Assembly: GCF_018977255.1 (NCBI RefSeq)
Contig: NW_024704743.1
Coordinates: 9,426,001-9,490,000 of the forward strand
Direction: 5' to 3'
DNA from: Callorhinchus milii
Taxonomy: Eukaryota
DNA length: 64,000 nt
Position numbers and translations under genes: made by a program. Positions within the stretch are counted from its first letter, which is position 1. Every line of letters starts with the position of its first letter. Of this stretch, positions 3,375 through 62,148 are shown piece after piece. The notes beneath the pieces were generated by a model that searched no databases, was not told the origin of the DNA, and worked only from the letters and a program-made list of their open reading frames with translations.

Positions 3375-3889
3375 TATAATAATAATCCTTGCATTTGATA
3401 TCATAGAATCAGAGAATTACAGAATTATACGGCACAGAAGGAGGCCATTCGGCCCATCGTTTCAGTGACGGCTCTTTGAAAAGAGCTATCCAATTCAATC
3501 CCACTCCTCCGCTCTCTGCAAATTTGTCCTCCCCAAATAATTATTTAATATTGTGCCTTATCACATTTTCGAGACGTCTCAAAGAACTTCACAGAATACA
3601 CTATAGGGTGATTTGCCTGCATATTTTGTGAGCGAAACGCAGAAGAAAATTGCGCATAGCACTGTCCCATAAACAGTCGTGCATTAGGTGAACAATTTTT
3701 TTTCAAGGAAATATTACCTCTGGAAAAACGATCCGCCAATGGACTAACAGCCGAGTTCCTACTTACTGCTAGGTAAACAGAGGCGTGTGGAGTAAGGAAA
3801 CTTGCCCAATATTTTGCCCTGCCAGGAATCGAACTCAGGTCTCTCGCTTGTGAGGCGAGCGCTCTAACCACTGAGCTACAGGACTCCAC
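3375..3889 (-). mobile_element. tRNA-derived SINE family A (long variant), tail interrupted by a CR1 fragment
   Basis: Head gtggagtcctgtagctcagtggttagagc at 3889; body runs to ~3545; terminal caaatgcaaggattattatt displaced to 3375-3402. Confidence 0.85.
3403..3545 (-). mobile_element. CR1 LINE 3' end fragment
   Basis: Reverse complement reads gatgggccgaatggcctccttctgtgccgtataattctg..., typical of a CR1 3' terminus. Confidence 0.7.
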
Positions 3890-4990: not shown

Positions 4991-5800
4991 ACAACAACAA
5001 CAACAACAAGATTTCATTTATAGAGCGCCTTTCACGTCGGGAGGACGTCCCAAGGTGCTGGACAGTTGGGTCGGGACCCGAGCAGGGGGAAATGGTCAGG
5101 GTGAGGGGAGGGAAGGGAGGGAGCGAGTAGAGAGTCGATTAGGGAGCTGAAGGCATGGTCGAAGAGAAAGGTCTTGAGACCGGCCTTGAAGGAGGAAAGA
5201 GAAGAAGCAAGGCGAAGGCACTGGGGGATGGAGGTCCAGAGCCTAGGGGCTGAGAGGCTGAAGGCCCGGCCACCGATGGTAGGGTGGTTGGGGTGGGTGT
5301 TGTGGAGCAGACCGGAGCCAGAGGAATGGAGGGTATGGGCAGGTAAGTAGGGAGATAGTAGGTCGGAGAGGTAGGAGGGAGCAAGGCCGTGAATGGCCTT
5401 GTAGGTGAGGATGAGGATCTTGAATTCGATCCTCTGGGGGATGGGGAGCCAGTGGAGGCGAGCGAGGGTGGGAGTGATGTGGTCGCGAAGACTGGTGCGG
5501 GACAGTACACGAGCTGCAGAGCTCTGAATGACCTGCAGCTTGTGGAGGGAGGTGCCGGGAAGGCCGGCGAGGAGAGAGTTCCCATAGTCCAGCTTTGAGG
5601 TGGTAAAGGCGTGGACCAGAGTTTCAGCAGCGTGAGGGGTGAGGTAGTGCCGTAGTCTGGCGGTATTCCGGAAGTGATGGAAGGCGGTGCCAGTTATGGC
5701 ACGGATATGAGGAAGAAAGGACAGCTCAGGGTCGAACAGAGCGCCGAGGTTCCTGACTGGCTTTGAGAGGTGGAGAGTGCAGCCTTGGATGCTGATGCTG
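4991..5800 (-). mobile_element. L2 LINE, 5'-truncated; C-terminal ORF2 reading frame still open
   Basis: ORF 5032..5829 (RNLGALFDPELSF...AETLVHAFTTSKLDYGNSLL...LHWLPIPQRIEFKIL...GGRAFSLSAPRLW) is L2 ORF2 C-terminus; stem-loop plus (TTG)n tail. Confidence 0.92.
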
Positions 5801-6052
5801 AACAACAACAACTTGCATTTATATAGCATCCCTCACGCAGGGTAGCATGTCAGAGTGTAGTTGTTGAAAGCGCAGCAACCAATGGTGGAATGGAGGGCAC
5901 GAGGTACACGCAGAAGACCAGATCCAGTCGAGCAGAAACAGCAGGTTGGGGGGTGAGCAGGTTGGAGAGGTAGGGAGGTGCCAGGGCATGAAGGGATTTG
6001 AAAACGAATGTGAGGATCTTGAAATCAACCCGCTCGGTGATGGGGAGCCAGC
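5801..6052 (-). mobile_element. L2 LINE 3' fragment, second subfamily
   Basis: WLPITERVDFKILTFVFKSLHALAPPYLS in ORF 5850..6140; distinct tail similar to the copy at 38215. Confidence 0.85.
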
Positions 6053-10894: not shown

Positions 10895-11206
10895 TTAATA
10901 ATAATAATAATCCTTGCATTTGATATAGCGCTTTTCACGTCGGGAGGACGTCCCAAAGCGCTTCACAGAACACACTGTAAAGTGAATTGACTGTATATTT
11001 GTGGGCGAACGCGGCAGCCAATTGCGCACAGCAATGGCCCACAAACAGTCGTAGATTGAAAATGACCAATTCATTATTGTTTTTGGTTTCTTTTTGGAGG
11101 GATTATTATTATGCGTGTGGAGTAAGGAAACTTGCCCAAGGTTTCGCCCTGCCTGGAATTGAACTTGCAAAGCGAGTGCTCTAACCACTGAGCTACAGGA
11201 CTCCAC
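10895..11206 (-). mobile_element. tRNA-derived SINE family A (short variant), well preserved
   Basis: Very similar to 43566-43880 in opposite orientation; A/B boxes; (TTA)n tail. Confidence 0.9.
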
Positions 11207-12431
11207 AATTGCTCATTCACCTCAAGACCTTTTACAACAACAAGATTACATTTGTATAGCGCCTTTCACGTCAGGAGGATGCCCCAAGGCGCTTTTATGG
11301 GAGCTTGCAGGTGAAAAATACTGCTCCAACTGTTGAGAATAATAATAATAATCCTTTTATATGATATGGCACCTTTCATGTCAGGAGGATGTCTCAAAGC
11401 ACCTCATAGGCTTCACTGTAAAATGTAATGACTTGTATTGTGTAGGCGAACACAGCAGCCAATTCTCATGTAGCAATGTCCCATTACCAGCCATGAAGTG
11501 AATGAGAAATCTGAGCTGCAGTTTGCTTATAAAAACAGTTACTAAAATGTAACAGTATTTACAGGGTGACCCCGTTATAATGCTTCGGATTTGGATCAGG
11601 AGATTGTGTTATAACAGGCTCGGAGAGAGAAGAAAATAGCCGTTTTTAAGTGATAAACTGCAGCTCAGATTTCTCATTGACTTCATGGCTGTTAGTGGGA
11701 CATTTCTGCGTGCAAATTGGCTGCCGCATTCGCCTATACAAAACAAGTCAGGCTGCAGCTGACATCTCTCCCGATTCGGAACAGCTAGCCAGTCTCCTGC
11801 ACATGCATCCAGTGCGCAGCAAACCCACTGCTTTCACAAGAGTTTCTAACACGTGTAGGAACAAGCCAACCGCAACCCCCTCGCAAGTGTTTCTGTCATA
11901 CATGCAAGGGCTCAGATCAGTCCAGGTAGAAGAGTTCTGCATCTCTGGTTCCCCTGGGTTCTTAGTGATCTTGTGCTCCAGCAAGGCTGGCCTGTGTACC
12001 TGTGAAGTACTGGAGCCATTTCACTGTGATCAGGCAGTATAAAAATCAAAATTCTCTCTCTCTTTTCCTCGGCTTTGCAGCATTGAGGCTCAACCACTGT
12101 GCCTTCTGATAAAAACAAACTAGCAATGGTTGTTTTTCTGTACAGAATCATCATAAGACATTCCTATCCAGCCAGCCACAAGCCTGCAGATAAGGTGCTC
12201 AGCCAACTGTACAAATTCCCATTTCGGAAATCCCTTTTGCAGGGTTGATTATGTGGCAAGCTTTTAATTTATATATCTATGCAATAAAAAAAGAGGAAAA
12301 TAATTCGAACAGCTTTCAGTCATCTTCTAGAAAAAGGTAACTTTTGGCTGCACAGAAATGTTTTTGTTTGACAAAAGTACAGCAGCTCGAATAAGGGCAA
12401 AATATAAATTTCCCCACGGTGCGACACTCAC

Positions 12432-19741: not shown

Positions 19742-20216
19742 CTATGCATTGTTAAACAGCAAATGTTTATGCAACAACAATGCAGCATCTTGGAGCGTGA
19801 CAGGTGCTGACAGTTAGCTCCGGTTGCGCTGTACTCCACCTTCAGGCCCACCAGCTGCTCGGTGTTGCCCACAATGACCTCAGCGGCTTGCAGGAATCTC
19901 ACCCCATCCCGCTCGTTGTTGACCCGGAAATAATCCATTCCCCTCCAGCCACCTGCACCAGCGACTCCCGGCTTACCATTGCCCACATGGCACAAGCCAC
20001 CAAGTGAGCCAACCACACGTGCTCCTGAACCATGATGTGAACGACGTGACCAATACCCACATAGACGGCCCAGTGTTTGAATTTCCCACGGAAAATCTTA
20101 ATCAGGTCCCCGGGCTTCAACCTAATATAGTCAATGTCCAAGTCCGTGTGTCCTGTCTTCGTGCCTGATCCACAGCTAACCCCAGATCCATGGCTTGTGC
20201 TCACACTGCTCCCCAT
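19742..20216 (-). pseudogene. PLAAT/HRASLS-family (LRAT domain, permuted NlpC/P60) phospholipase A/acyltransferase-like, intronless, two frameshifts
   Basis: ORF 19899..20216 has [27 protein letters not shown] (H-box). ORF 19699..20016 has [10 protein letters not shown]...IVGNTEQLVGLKVEYSATGANCQH (NC motif). Frameshifts at ~19939-19943 (5 extra nt) and ~19802 (1 nt missing; restoring it gives H-x-VTL as in NCEHFVTL). Confidence 0.85.
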
Positions 20217-22689
20217 TCAGAGTCGATGCTGGGTCCTGGCGAATTGCTAGTAATAATTAAGAGTTAGGCTAACATTTGAAGTCAATAACTGTTAATGTAA
20301 TGAGGTGCAGCCATCTGATAATTTCCACTGTCTGCAGGTTATTTCATCATCTCACTCTCCACCCACATCCCACCCACCAGCAGCAACAACAACTTAGCAA
20401 ATCCAGCACCAGAAATTAAATCCCAAACTTGGTTGCAAATTGCAGTGAAAGTTTTACTTGGGAGGTACTGAAATCAAGGTTCATCATTAAAAGAATATTA
20501 AGGCAATAACCATCAAGTAGCAAGTTTCTATTTACAGCAAGTAGAAAATCAGCTAACTATATGCTTATGAGCATAAAAGGACCATTACACCAATGGTTCA
20601 GTGAAGAACCAATCACAGCTTTAATTATAGGAATCATTATTCCTGCGTGCACTTTTCCCCATACACAGTTCATTATTCCTGCTATTAAGAAGTTTGATTG
20701 CTATGTACGAATAAACTGCAGGGGAATTGGAAGAAACAAACCAGTTCAGAATCAATTTTAAAAGTTTTCCAGGCAATCTTTTTTCTCCTTCCAGTTTTTC
20801 ACCTGCTTTAGAAGTGGACGGTGTGCGAGTCCCAAGAGAGATGTGTAAGTGTATATTTTGAGGTGGATTGAGAGGGGGAGGAATCCTGGCAGTGAACTTG
20901 ATGGTCCTCAAAGGCCTTTTTGTTCCACATCCCTTCCCATCTATGTCTTTATCTATATCTCTGCTATCCCCAGCTCAGGTGCCCGGCCAGTTTTGAGCGC
21001 TTTGAGACATGCTTCCAACGTGAAAGATGTAACACAAATGTAAGTTGTATTGTACAAATTACATAATCACTACCCACAACAGTAAATCATGTGAACACTT
21101 TGAGACGTCCTCCTGCCATGAACGGCACTATATCAAATGCTTTTATTATTATTACTATGTATTTACACACAGGCTCCCACAAATTTCTCCACCGCTAAAA
21201 ATTCCTTCTCCGTGACCAAACCTCAATAAGTATACTTAATTCATGCATAATTATAATTAGTAAATAATCTTGGACAAATTGCTCCCATTTCATCTAAACT
21301 CATTCACTCCACAATCGACACCATATTATCTTGCAGTGGAAGCTCCATTTGTAATTACCTCATCAACATGAATGCACATGGTGTATAATGCGTCTCAGAA
21401 ATTAATATGTGGCTGGCAGAGACACAGTTATTCCAGAGCCACCATATTCCAGCATTAACATCGAAAATCGAAGGGTCTCAGGAGAAAAAGTTTCATTAGA
21501 TGAGACAAAAGAACCAAAGTGGCTGCGTGGGATTCTTTCGCTACTGTGTCAACAAACAACTTTTGGAATATTAGCCAGCTGTGGCTCAGAGTGCAACAAC
21601 CAGTCCCTCTGCCACCAAGTGTACCTACTAATGAAACCCCTGGGAGAGGAGGCACTGCACGTGCGTCAAAAGCTCTTGCATTTGAGTAAATTCACACAAC
21701 TCGTATTATGCATTTCCATAGAATAGAACAGGCAAATCACACAACATGGCAAATAGGAGTACAAGTGGGCAGGATTGTTAGCCGAAGAATCAGGAGAGAT
21801 TCCAAAATAATTCTTCACAAAGAGGGTTTTTAATGTTGTCGACGTTACTACTCCAAGCAGCTATTGAGGCTGATTAATAAAATAATAATTCTTGCATCTG
21901 ATTTGCAATTATTATTATTATGATGCACCAACATAAGGGTTCTCAGTATTTCCTCCAAATTGAATAATTCAAAATGGAACTGGATAAGCACTTGAGAAGT
22001 AAAAAAATTAAAGATATAAATAAAGATAAGCCTCACATTTAATATAGCGTCTTTCACATAAGGAGAACATCTCAAAGCCCTGTAAAGTGTTGTGGCTGTA
22101 CATTTGTGGGTGAAGCCTATGGGGAAAGAGCTAGAAAGTGGGATTAATAAAAAGGGTAACTTAAAAAAAAGGCAGTCGTGGCACATACATAATAGATAAA
22201 TGTTCCTCTCCTGGGCTGAGAAATGCAATCTTTCTATCTGATCAGAGAGTGAAGGGAGAGTTAAGACTGATTGTGCGTCAGCAACACATTGCCACATTTC
22301 ATTGACTTTTTAGCTCTGCGGGACACCTTTCACTGATTGAGACGTCTCGAAGACATGATAAGGCGCTATATCAAATGCAAGTATTATTATTATTACCCAC
22401 AAGCTGCACTGCCGGTAAGGCGATCACCTCTAAGCTGTTAATATTCATGACAGTCATGCGACCAGGAAACGATCCCGTACTTGTGAAGAGATCATGCTGT
22501 GCATAAAACAAATAGGCACGGAGTCTCGCAGATCACCAGCTGCACCGCTTCCAGCAAACGTTCCTCCTGCTTTATTTGAATAGGAAGAGAGAGAGATGTG
22601 TCCACTCTGAAGCGTACAAAGCCTTGGATTCAAACCAATTGTCAAACATAGGGCACTCGAATGTCATCCACAAATGCTCTGCTGCCATG

Positions 22690-35704: not shown

Positions 35705-36165
35705 ACACAACAACAACATACTGAATTTATATAGTGCCATCAAGAGGGCATCCCAAGGTGCTGGAAAGTGAAGGGTTTGCACCTGAGATGGGGTTTGGAG
35801 TAAAGAGAGGTGGAGGCCAAAGGAGGGTGGAGGTAGGAAGAATACCGAAGACGCAATCAAAGAGGAAGGTCTTGACACAGGCCTTGAAGGAGGTAAGGGA
35901 GGGGGAAGAAAGGTTCAAGGCGTGATCATCAATAGTGGACCAGGCAGCACAGGGGTCATGGAGTAAGTATGGTGTCAGTAGGTGTTAATGGGTTGCAGAG
36001 GTAGGGTGGAACAAGACCGTGGAGGGCTTTAAAAGTGAGGACGAGGATCTTGAACTCAATCGTCTGGGGATGGGGAGCCAGTGAAGCCGGGAAAGTGTGT
36101 GGATGATCAGCTCATGGAGCTCAGTGCAGCGAAGTTCACAAGCTGCAGAGTTCTGCATCTGATGG
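35705..36165 (-). mobile_element. L2 LINE 3' fragment
   Basis: (CAA)n tail, SFKACVKTFLFD in ORF 35727..35918, and reverse-complement WLPIP...FKIL region. Confidence 0.85.
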
Positions 36166-36177
36166 AAAGAATCGTCC

Positions 36178-36999
36178 AGTCACCTGGAGGGTACCCCAAG
36201 GCTCCATCCTTGGCTCCTTTCTTTTCCTCATTTACATGCTCCCTCTCAGGGATGTCATCCGTAGATATGGAGTTAAGTTCCACATGTATGCAGATGACAC
36301 CCAAATCTACTTCTCCTCCTCCAACTGACTTTTCTACCCCACATCGTTCCCTGACCAGAACCGCTTTTTCCACCTCCTCCGCATTGCCTGCCTCTGTCCG
36401 TCCGTACCTCACAACCGAAGCAGCTGAAACCCTTGTCCATGCCTTCATCACTTCCCAGCTGGACTATTCCTTTGCCCTCTTCGCTGGTCTTCCCAGCTCC
36501 ACTATACACAAAATCCAGTTAATTCAAAACTCCAACATCAAGATACTCACCCACACAAAACTCTGCACCCCCATCACACCAATCCTAGCCAGGCTCCACT
36601 GGCTCCAAATCACCAAACGGATCAGTTTCAAGAACTTCTCACTTGGTTTCAAATCCCTTCATGCCCTTGCAGCTCCCTATCTATCAGACCCACTTATCCC
36701 CCAATCCACCACCCGCCTCCTCCGCTCAGCTGGCTCCTACTTCCTGTTTGTTTGTCCCTCATGCTCTCTGTTCCACCATTAGTGGCTGTGCCTTCAGCCA
36801 CAATGCCCTGAAACTCTAGAACTCTCTCCCTCCGACTTGCCACGTTCAATTCCCACCAAAATACTTTCTTTTTTGATCGTACTTACCGTCACCTCCCCGC
36901 TTCCCGTCCCTCTTCCCCGGCTCGTTGTCAGACTCCACCACTGTGAGTACTCCGGGACACTACCCCACGTGAAGGGTGCTATATAAAAGTTGTTGTTGG
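36178..36999 (+). mobile_element. L2 LINE fragment with RT core, internally deleted
   Basis: Encodes GVPQGSILG...IYMLPL...[11 protein letters not shown], then AAETLVHAFITSQLDY...LHWLQ; ends in an L2 tail with (TTG)n. Confidence 0.9.
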
Positions 37000-43565: not shown

Positions 43566-43880
43566 GTGGAGTCCTGTAGCTCAGTGGTTAGAGCACTCAC
43601 TTTGCAAGTGAGAGACCTGAGTTCAATTCCAGGCAGAGGGCGAAACCTTGGGCAAGTTTCCTTACTCCACACGCCTAATAATAATCCCTTCAAAAAACAA
43701 AACAATAATAAATTGGTCATTTTCAATCTACGACTGTTTGTGGGACATTGCTGTGCGCAATTGGCTGCCGCGTTCGCCCACAAATATGCAGTCAATTCAC
43801 TTTACAGTGTGTTCTGTGAAGCGCTTTGGGACGTCCTCCCGACGTGAAAAGCGCTATATCAAATGCAAGGATTATTATTG
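43566..43880 (+). mobile_element. tRNA-derived SINE family A (short variant), full length
   Basis: A-box tagctcagtgg, anticodon-like arm ctcac-tttgcaa-gtgag (Ala-TGC-like), B-box gttcaattcc, tail gcgctttgggacgtcctcccgacgtgaaaagcgc...ggattattatt. Confidence 0.92.
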
Positions 43881-50800: not shown

Positions 50801-51340
50801 ATAGTGCTCTTCACAACTTCTAGACGTCTCAAAGAATTGACTATATTTGTGGGTGAAACATGGAGCTAGAGCAATTGTTAACACAGCAAACAGCCATGGA
50901 GTGACTAATTTTATTTGGGGGATTGCTGGCCTGGATACATGATGAAACGCTTTTCTCTTTTCGAATAGTGGCATGGAATCTTACAGTAAGCACTGTACTA
51001 TTCAAATTGACATTTTTAGTAATTTAAACATAACTACATGTTCATCCAACAAATGACTGTTTGGAGTGTTATCTTAGACTATGTGATTCCAAGTCCCGAC
51101 GTGAGGCTTGAACCTACAACCTTCTGAATAATAAAGGGAGGTGTGGACTGGGAGGCCTCTGCTGAAGGTGCAAGTTAAATAAAATGTACGGTTGATTGGC
51201 CTGCTTACATAGAGTGCGACTGATGTCTGTGGATCTGTAGTGTCAATGCAAAGAAAAATAAGTCATAACCTGGGCCAATAGAAAAGTGCAGCCGCACTTT
51301 TTCCGCGGAATCCACTACAAGCACCCCCTCCACTATAAAC

Positions 51341-51660
51341 CTGTACGCACAGTGTGCCAGGCGCTGCTACTCACTTGTATACACAGTGTGCCAGGCCCCG
51401 TTACTCACCTGTACACAGTGTGCCAGGCCCCGCTACACACCTGTACATACAGTGTGCCAGGCCCCGCTACACACCTGTACATACAGTGTGCCAGGCCCCG
51501 CTACACACCTGTACACAGTGTGTCAGGCCCCGCTACACACACACAGTGTGCCAAGCCCCGCTACACACCTGTACACATAGTGTGCCAAGCCCCGCTACAC
51601 ACTTGTACACACAGTGTGCCAGGCCCCGCTACACACCTGTACACACAGTGTGCTAGGCCT
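51341..51660 (+). repeat. Minisatellite, ~10 copies of a mostly 32-34 bp unit
   Basis: Unit ~ACAGTGTGCCAGGCCCCGCTACACACCTGTAC(AC/AT); length variation lies in a CA run. Confidence 0.95.
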
Positions 51661-52868: not shown

Positions 52869-54303
52869 ACAACAAGAACAACAAAATTACATTTGTATAG
52901 CACTTTTCTCGTTGGAAGGACATCCCAAGTCGCTGGACTGTCAGTGTTTCGGACCCGAACTGAGGGTCCGGATTGGGGAGGATGGAGGGTAGGGGGGGAA
53001 GGAGAGAGATCGAAAGCACGGTCGAAGAGGAGAGTCTTGAGATGGGTCTTGACGGAGGCAGAGGGACTGCGGGATGGAGTTCCAGAGGGTGGGGCCAGAG
53101 TGGCAGAAGGCCCACCCGCCAATGGTGGGGCGGGCGAGGCGAGGGCTGTGAAACAGGCCAGAGCCCACTTGTGGGGGGTTAGGAGGTCGCAGAGGTAGGG
53201 GGAGCAAGACCATGGAGGGCTTTGAAGGTGAGGACCAGGAGCTTGAAATGTATCCTCTGTGTGACAGGAAGCCAGTGGAGTTGGGCGAGGATAGGGTTGA
53301 TAGGACCATAGAGCCTGGTGCGGGAGAAGACACAGGCTGCGGAGTTCTGGATGATCTGCAGCCTATGGAGGGAGGAGTTGAGGAGGCCGACAAGCAAGGA
53401 GTTTGCATAGTCAAGCCTCAATGTAATGAAAGCATGTATGGGGGTTTCAACGGCCTGCGTTGTGAGACAGTGGCGGAGCGGGGCGATGTTGCAGAAATGG
53501 GGGAAGGCAGAGCGGGTCATGGCACGGATGTGGGGTGGAAAGGATAACTGAGGGTCAAACAAGACGCCAAGGTTCTAGACTGGCTTAGTAAGGTGGAGTG
53601 TGCATTCATTATGCTGTCAGCGCCTGAAGTGTGGAGAGCCTCGGTCTTGTTGACGTTCAACTGAAGAAAGTTAGCTCTCATCCAGGACTTGATGTCTGAT
53701 GGATATTCTGTCAGGACAGCAGTGGTCCTGGAGTCAAGAGTGGAGGCAAAGAGGAACAGTTGTGTGCCATCCACATAATGTGGAAGTTGACCCCATGTCT
53801 GCAGATGATGTCACCAAGAGGGAGCATATAGACATTGAAGAGGAGGGAACCAAGGACAGAGCTCTGCGGAATGCCGCACAAGACAGTGCGGGGGCTAGAG
53901 AAGAAAGGTTGAGGGGATAGGAGAGGCGGTGGATGAAGATAGAGTGGTCAACGGTGTCGAAGGCAGTAGAGAGGTCAAGGAGGATGGGGATGCAGAGGGA
54001 GCCCTGGTTGCAGATGGACAAATTGTCATTTGTCACTTTGATCAGAGCTGTTTCTGTGCTGTGGGCGGCATGGAAACCCGACTGGAGGGGTTCATGAAGG
54101 GAGTAGCGGGAGAGGAAGGAGAGAAGCTGGGAAGCAACAACTCGTTCCAGGGCCTTGGAGAGGAAAGGGAGGTTGGAGATGAGGCAGCAGTTTGAGAGTA
54201 GGAATGGGTCTAGGGCGAGGTTTTTTAAGGATGGGAGTGATGATGGCCGTTTTTAAAGGGGTGGGAACAGTACCAGTGGACAGGGAGAGGTTTATGATGT
54301 CCA
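52869..54303 (-). mobile_element. L2 LINE, 5'-truncated (~1.4 kb), disrupted RT
   Basis: [41 protein letters not shown] and HAFITLRLDYANSLL...LHWLP in several frames; L2 tail. Confidence 0.95.
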
Positions 54304-55950: not shown

Positions 55951-57440
55951 AACAAACAACAACCAGATTACATTTGTATAGCGCCTTTCACATCGGGAGG
56001 ACATCATAAGGCGCTTGACAGCGTACGGCATTTCAGACCCGAGCTGGGGTCAGGTGCGGAAGAAGGGAGGGGAGGGGAAGGGGGGTGGCCGATGGCATGG
56101 TTGAAGAGGAGGGTCTTGAGGAGGGTCTTGAAGGATGCTAAGGAGGGTTGAGGCAGAGTGACTGAGGGATCGAATTCCAAAGGTTGGGTGCAGAATGGCT
56201 GAAGGCTCTCCCGCTAATGGTGGGGCGGGTGGGTTGGTGGACGTGGAGCAGGTTCGAGCCGGCTGAGCGGAAGGAACGGACAGGCTGGTAGGAGTTAGGA
56301 GGGCGCAGAGGTAGGGTGGGGTGAGGCCATTGAGGGCTTTGTAGGTGAGGACCGGAATCTTGAACTGGATCCTCTGAAGGATAGGGAGACAATGGAGTTG
56401 GGCGAGAGGGAGGGAGATGGGGTCACGGAGCTTCGTGCGGGAGAGGACACGGGCTGCAGAGTTCTGGATTATCTGCAGCCTGTGGAGGGAAGAGTTGGGA
56501 AGGCCGACAAACATAGTCGAGACTAGAGGTGATGAAGGCATGAACAAGAGTTTCAGCGGCCTGAGGGGTGAGGTAGTGGCGGAGTCGGGCAATGTTACAC
56601 AGGTGAGGAAAGGCAGAGCGGGTCATGGCTTGGATGAAGAAGAGACAGTTGAGGGTCGAACAAGACACCTAGGTTCCTGACTGGCTTGGTGAGTTGAAGT
56701 GTGCAACCATGGAGGTTGATGCTGCCAGAGCCTGAGGTGCTGAGGTGCCAATCAGGAGGGCCTCAGTCTTGTTCACATTCAACTGTAGGAAATTTACCCT
56801 CATCCAGAACTTGATGTCCGACAGGCAGTCTGTCAGGACACGAGTGGTCCTGGAGTTGAGGGTGGAGGCAGAAAGATAGAGTTGGGTGTCATCCGCATAC
56901 ATATGGAAGTTGACCCCATGTCTGCGGATGATGTCACCAAGGGGGAGCATGTAGATACTAAAGAGGAGAGGGCCAAGGACAGAGCCATGGGGGTCGCCAA
57001 ACATGACAGTGCGGGGACTGGAGGAGAAACCGTTAGAGGCAACAAAGTAGAGACGGTGAGAGAGATAGGAATCGAACCAGGCAAGGGCAGATCCGTGAAG
57101 ATTGAGTAAAGCGGAGAGGTGGTGTATGAGGATGGAGTGGTCGACAGAGTCGAAGGCGGCAGAGCGGTCGAGGAGGACAAGGAGGCAGAGGGAGCCCTGA
57201 TCACAGATGTTCAGAATGTCATTAGTGACTTTGATCAGGGCTGTTTCCGTGCTATGGGCAGCTCAGAAGCCGGATTAGAGGGGTTCAAAGAGGGAATGGC
57301 AAGAAAGAAAGGAGCGGAGCTGGGACGCAATGACTCGTTCCAGGACCTTGGAGAGGAATGGAGGTTAGAGATGGGGCGGCAGCTGGAGAGTAGGGCTGGC
57401 TCCAGGGAAGGCTTTTTCAAGAGAGGGGTGATGACGGCTG
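55951..57440 (-). mobile_element. L2 LINE, 5'-truncated (~1.5 kb), RT core recognisable
   Basis: [39 protein letters not shown] (ORF 56669..57004) and AVITPLLKKPSLEP; frameshifted; L2 tail. Confidence 0.96.

Positions 57441-61902: not shown

Positions 61903-62148
<246 letters not shown>

Follow-up and report, generated by a model that had tools for sequence, protein, structure and literature searches.

Vertebrate PLAAT2, PLAAT3 and PLAAT4 (HRASLS2, PLA2G16 and RARRES3) are NlpC/P60-type thiol phospholipase A/acyltransferases. Two reports tie the PLAAT family to lens organelle clearance and to picornavirus entry or restriction (PMC10760033; PMC10102619). According to a third report, the second residue of the catalytic triad is a histidine in PLAAT2-5 and an asparagine in PLAAT1, the NCEHFV motif is highly conserved and HRASLS3 is inactive without its C-terminal hydrophobic domain (PMC4624172). 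We examined a relative of these genes in a 64,000-nt stretch of the Callorhinchus milii genome (contig NW_024704743.1, positions 9,426,001 to 9,490,000; referred to here as the window), for which the original prediction was an intronless PLAAT/HRASLS-like gene with an intact triad inside intron 2 of PARD3. Our analysis suggests that this copy is probably an old processed pseudogene of the PLAAT lineage.

Family assignment and state of the reading frame

The top PDB matches for both halves of the copy are PLAAT2/3/4 (E 8e-10 for the first half and 2e-4 for the second), and its second triad residue is a histidine, as in PLAAT2-5. Unlike PLAAT2/3/4, which carry NCEHFV, the copy has NCQH, and it has neither a C-terminal hydrophobic anchor nor a continuous frame. 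The Pfam LRAT profile check that had been proposed was run, and the 105-aa first frame matches the profile (PF04970, E 4.9e-11, 43.4 bits against a cut-off of 24.3, profile positions 3-67); the second frame carries the same profile on at 67-110, with 15.7 bits, which taken alone is below the cut-off. The PLAAT/HRASLS family call is thus borne out by PLAAT/LRAT matches of both halves, in two frames. The three triad codons are retained on the minus strand where they had been predicted (Table 1), and the locus between the predicted ATG and the TAG at 19742-19744 is real; however, the span 19742-20216 is too narrow, with homology starting at 20239 and fading at ~19800-19780. The copy forms a 55% GC island between flanks of 37% GC. 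The two His codons are read in another frame than the Cys codon, and no active enzyme would therefore be made by the copy. Judged by its sequence, it is by descent a PLAAT3-like (His-His-Cys) gene which, as a working PLAAT enzyme, is deficient in three defining respects, namely NCEHFV/LRYG, a single open frame and a hydrophobic anchor.

Table 1. Features of the PLAAT-like copy and of its PARD3 host in the window
Feature	Position	Strand	Remark
Whole decayed intronless PLAAT3-like copy	19781-20239	-	Paralog alignable from 20239 to ~19796; last 15 nt uncertain
Upstream piece homologous to paralog S-R-T-Q...S-E-W-G stretch	20201-20239	-	1 of 1000 random window pieces scores as high
5-nt deletion	near 20225	-	Alignment to paralog
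ATG proposed as start	20214-20216	-	Across paralog GAA-TGG (Glu-Trp) codons; offset mod 3 = 2
In-frame TGA	20203-20201	-	Within upstream piece, paralog frame
~20 nt extra relative to paralog	20166-20185	-	Puts ATG at 20216 in frame with catalytic domain
ACG in place of paralog's Met	20145-20147	-	Other PLAAT3-like proteins of chondrichthyans have their initiator Met at this position
Catalytic His (H-box), kept	20073-20075	-	CAC
Second catalytic His, kept	20037-20039	-	CAC; no intron after it
44-nt 'intron' of UniRef100_A0A4W3H5I2	19942-19985	-	Deletes conserved A-x-V-x-x-E-x-L motif
Frameshift 1, net +5 nt relative to homologs	19936-19948	-	G-rich stretch
Catalytic Cys, kept, within NCQH	19810-19812	-	TGT; E to Q relative to 149/149 homologs
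Frameshift 2, 1 nt short	19802-19803	-	At invariant Phe after NCxH; homology stops a few codons on
PARD3 coding exon, Par3 residues 41-74, AG/GT-bounded	62047-62148	-	Pfam PF12053 E 5e-13; PDB E 3e-18

The net gain of 5 nt near 19942 and the loss of 1 nt near 19802 were reproduced by independent alignments, although the first of these breaks can be placed only to within ~12 nt. Altogether the copy carries at least four frame-shifting indels, one stop (TGA) and an ACG start, and its 3' part is missing. Among 22 near-invariant residues outside the catalytic triad, four are changed in the copy (E to K, Y to F and A to T, and NCQH in place of NCEH), whereas none of 149 intact homologs has more than 2 such changes. 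The E, F and Y of NCEHFV/LRYG are 100% conserved in these homologs; the copy has NCQH, then the frameshift, and LRYG..S.Q is lost. Beyond the NC motif no match to the tail of the C. milii paralog described below was detectable, 85 of 148 random pieces scoring as high, and a tblastn search of the rest of the window with 150 proteins, aimed at further PLAAT fragments or the absent 3' exon, gave one 12-residue match (E 0.007). A C-terminal anchor was not found either: the best 19-residue hydropathy in the downstream frames is 1.02 and 0.54, whereas four homologs with an anchor reach 1.9-2.1. We also considered a loop with a scrambled frame behind the second His, and rejected it as 105 of 500 shuffles scored as well.

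The intact triad had been taken as a mark of function; however, simulated neutral decay keeps all three residues with a probability of 0.54-0.12 over 8-25% base divergence, and this argument does not hold. Nor can we retain the proposal that the copy was recently inactivated or is affected by assembly indels, in view of two more indels, the TGA, the loss of the start, the missing 3' part and the four changed sites. While single indels could be assembly errors, the whole pattern could not, because assembly indels alone cannot explain more changes at near-invariant residues than are seen in any of the 149 homologs, and the lesions are probably real. An enzyme that is intact and expressed from a single exon, with both breaks due to faulty assembly, would fit with the location of the first break in a G run, with one missed base also shifting the frame, with the intact triad and with the two automatic models at the locus. 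However, it would require two errors within 140 nt as well as a new start, would leave the four substitutions and the lost LRYG..S.Q unexplained, and would be at odds with the conserved motif and the hydrophobic domain required for HRASLS3 activity according to PMC4624172; we regard it as extremely unlikely.

The locus is already known in the form of an automatic coding model. A protein search gave two matches among 31 candidates, both from this locus, namely the 105-aa frame itself and UniRef100_A0A4W3H5I2, a C. milii 'LRAT domain-containing protein' whose sequence agrees fully with the window in the two frames. It is a 131-aa coding gene in the database, whereas the copy as described here consists of broken frames. 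The model carries both breaks and may derive from the same assembly. Its first residues come from 6-7 unrelated codons at 20971-20991, at the edge of a repeat, and since its 44-nt 'intron' removes a conserved motif (Table 1), this can be read as a modelling bridge over the first frameshift. We regard the model as an artefact.

The C. milii paralog and the supposed MGSSVS start

The closest gene is the C. milii HRASLS3/PLAAT3-like gene XP_007882685.1 (locus LOC103171704; cDNA proteins AFM87174.1 and AFK10929.1), which is recorded on a 25,902-bp contig next to a tandem neighbour (AFK10915.1). Paralog and copy have in common the LRAT domain, the His-His-Cys triad, a private upstream stretch (RTQ, SEWG and TGH.DLDI) and the motifs AAE.IV and VGLKV.Y, and 62 of 130 aligned residues are identical. 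The paralog is known from cDNA and has an open frame, NCEHF and LRYG, whereas the copy has lost its start codon, frame and 3' part. With the shared upstream piece included, the paralog reaches a frameshift-aware alignment score of 244, where three further proteins from chondrichthyans reach 169-184, and a base-level score of 143, against 56-91 for seven others. In two comparisons with random pieces of the window, this upstream piece scored higher than all 150 and than 999 of 1000, respectively, and among the best 150 of 237 profile-search matches one protein, XP_007882685, shared the pre-domain stretch TGH.DLDI. Over the core only, a mammalian protein is as identical to the copy (48%) as the paralog is. 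Trees, which were built leaving out LRAT, LRATD, viral (picornaviral 2A) and named PLAAT1 or PLAAT5 proteins, pair the copy with the paralog, with support of 84/90 when the upstream piece is included (41 rows) and 76/54 when restricted to the core (27 rows); as the copy sits on a long branch, the pairing is weak.

The paralog is itself odd, as its frame stays open over a long stretch ahead of the Met at which the family starts. Its tail is basic and weakly hydrophobic, with a best hydropathy of 1.25 against 1.9-2.1 in four homologs, which resembles the anchor-less layout of PLAAT5, though the tail could instead represent intron read-through. Two database models (P0258 and P0163) join the two neighbouring C. 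milii PLAAT genes as a single protein with two domains, and many of the two- to eleven-domain PLAAT models met in the protein searches may be similar fusions across tandem arrays.

Beyond the two models of the locus, the nearest intact relative in the protein searches is this paralog, at 43-48% identity. No intact close relative, and no orthologue in other chimaeras, was seen in these searches (31 candidates; best 150 of 237 matches; 94 matches; best 120 of 778), which speaks against the proposed single-exon subfamily, although this absence is weak evidence as these protein searches have length and word limits. A viral origin was considered and rejected: relatives on 11 viral contigs are only 25-34% identical to a PLAAT query, the best match of the model built on the copy has an E-value of 0.008, and the private upstream stretch is common to the copy and a host cDNA. 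The eleven viral-contig loci in question carry distant LRAT-domain relatives, four of which share match length and score.

It had further been proposed that the copy starts with MGSSVS, fitting a myristoylation consensus. The ATG in question is out of frame with the paralog and derives from the S-E-W-G stretch, which aligns in the other frame (S-E-W-G-A-V-stop-A-Q-A-M-D in the copy and S-E-W-G-T-A-R-A-S-A-I-D in the paralog). The counterpart of the upstream piece in the paralog would be either a 5' UTR or an N-terminal extension. The ~20 extra nucleotides by which the ATG comes into frame with the catalytic domain resemble a short tandem duplication with 2 nt added, and in the alignment with chondrichthyan relatives the family start codon appears as a lost one, replaced by ACG (Table 1). 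Furthermore, 21 of the 113 Met-Gly starts in the window fit MGxxx[S/T]. Because the ATG is out of frame and the motif is this frequent, the myristoylation idea goes back to a motif at chance level, and the MGSSVS start is not supported. It is highly unlikely that the copy is a chimaera-specific retrogene which lost its start and anchor, gained a new myristoylated N-terminus from the out-of-frame ATG through the 20-nt insertion, functioned for some time as an anchor-swapped phospholipase and lives on intact in other holocephalans.

Introns and the origin of the copy

The copy has no intron, as had been predicted; its span is collinear with the cDNA protein of the paralog, and from the second His to the next motif there are 18 codons in the copy and 17 in this protein. 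Intron positions were compared in seven loci from metagenome contigs, none of which is known to be chondrichthyan. In three of them (L002, L004 and L006) a phase-1 GT-AG intron of ~280-390 nt lies 4-5 codons past the second His; of the others, L001 is transcript-like, L003 and L005 are divergent and without this intron, while L007 matches over 14 residues only. L005, although PLAAT-like, has an intron at a different place. In catshark and zebra shark, PLAAT isoforms diverge solely on the upstream side of a position 5-7 codons ahead of KPGD, which points to a second splice junction just before this motif. The paralog probably has introns at both junctions, and the copy runs collinear with the cDNA protein across both places.

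A retrocopy origin is supported as probable by these data. The multi-exon parent that would make the copy an ordinary processed pseudogene has largely been found, but it is not close (43-48% identity) and its introns are predicted from isoforms and relatives. According to the processed-pseudogene model, a PLAAT mRNA belonging to the HRASLS3-like lineage of the elephant shark, from the gene of AFM87174/AFK10929/XP_007882685, its ancestor or a close sibling, would have been reverse-transcribed, most likely by LINE machinery, and the cDNA would have entered a large intron of PARD3 in the sense orientation. Decay without selection would then have removed the start codon and the 3' part and introduced one stop and at least four frame-shifting indels. 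This model is favoured by the paralog as best match, the tree pairing and the shared upstream piece, and also by the absence of introns where relatives are spliced, the number of changed near-invariant sites and the lack of a hydrophobic tail.

A search around the copy for poly(A), a convincing target-site duplication and a SINE/LINE or repeat tail found none of these; apart from A5/A6 runs there is just a single 10-mer repeat of low complexity, located 150 nt beyond the homologous region. The poly(A) tail and target-site duplication are often lost in old retrocopies. Like LINE-made processed pseudogenes in general, the copy is mRNA-collinear over conserved splice positions, located away from the parent locus and decayed, and it lies in a region with several reverse-transcriptase fragments. 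It differs from them in having no poly(A) or target-site duplication and in being conspicuously truncated at the 3' rather than the 5' end, which is unusual for a retrocopy and counts against the model, as do the intron seen in three of seven loci only, the weak tree with its long branch and the core identity of the mammalian protein.

The same features would suit a DNA-level duplicate of a part of a PLAAT gene that is intronless over this stretch, formed without any RNA step, which would account for the absent poly(A) and target-site duplication and for a 3' end that stops within the domain, and which gains from the parental introns being deduced only. However, two positions at which relatives are spliced fall within the copy, and the paralog locus is spliced, as seen from isoforms and from a read-through model to the tandem neighbour at the S-x-Q junction of the family. 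We consider such a duplication very unlikely.

A further point against simple decay is that change is spread unevenly across sites, more so than purely neutral decay predicts: 4 of 22 invariant sites are changed, whereas for the remaining consensus sites the count is 11 of 26 (P 0.01-0.045 in simulations and 0.12 in a Fisher test). Moreover, the copy shares 8 of the 32 non-consensus residues of the paralog, and none of its 83 core codons is a stop, for which the neutral chance is 0.42-0.10. For these reasons the copy is probably not a dead-on-arrival version of the paralog as it exists today. Its source may have been an ancestor or sibling gene, the copy may once have worked as a retrogene, or the paralog may have changed fast later; there is a weak hint that the lineage of the copy was constrained before its death. 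This raises the possibility that the copy was retroposed, was long maintained by purifying selection as a functional PLAAT gene with a single exon, perhaps read from the new MGSSVS start, and died later, in which case it may stay intact in other chimaeras. The uneven change would be consistent with this idea, as would the few shared departures, which imply much constrained divergence between copy and paralog, the stop-free core and the 20-codon leader opened by the 20-nt insertion. However, the Fisher test is not significant, the surviving motifs are what drew attention to the copy and so bias the site-change test, and an unsampled or lost spliced sibling, or a fast-changing paralog, predicts the same pattern. 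In addition, intact relatives are absent from the protein searches and the MG motif goes back to codons of another frame, and we regard a long functional life as a retrogene as doubtful.

The PARD3 intron and implications

The nesting in PARD3 is supported by a coding exon of this gene on the same strand, 42 kb upstream of the copy, which we take to be exon 2 by mammalian numbering. Short motifs of the following PARD3 exons gave no credible match within the window, and the copy probably lies in the intron after this exon; of the predicted 'intron 2', the upstream exon was found and the number is presumptive. No repeats shared with the rest of the window were detected between ~19200 and 20950. 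Elsewhere, decayed reverse-transcriptase (LINE-like) fragments, presumably L2, occur on both strands (5032-5832, 36054-36782, 53179-54252 and 56050-57262, and shorter pieces), and a minisatellite with a period of ~34 bp and 9.7 copies is located at 51339-51659. A search of the window for RNA families (Rfam) gave three tRNA-like matches only (1905-1975, 3814-3885 and 43574-43636), none near the copy, with similar text again near 10895-11212; these are probably the heads of tRNA-derived SINEs. In the literature searched, we found no paper that brings together PLAAT, intron and PARD3, and nothing on the locus itself, although it may figure in pseudogene lists that accompany genome papers.

If the processed-pseudogene reading holds, the copy itself is of little significance. 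The reading does, however, correct an automatic protein-coding model, A0A4W3H5I2, and the copy illustrates how an intact triad together with a chance MGxxxS motif can mislead. Should other chimaeras keep an intact orthologue, the finding would matter more, as a naturally occurring example of a PLAAT protein that has swapped its C-terminal anchor for N-terminal lipidation.
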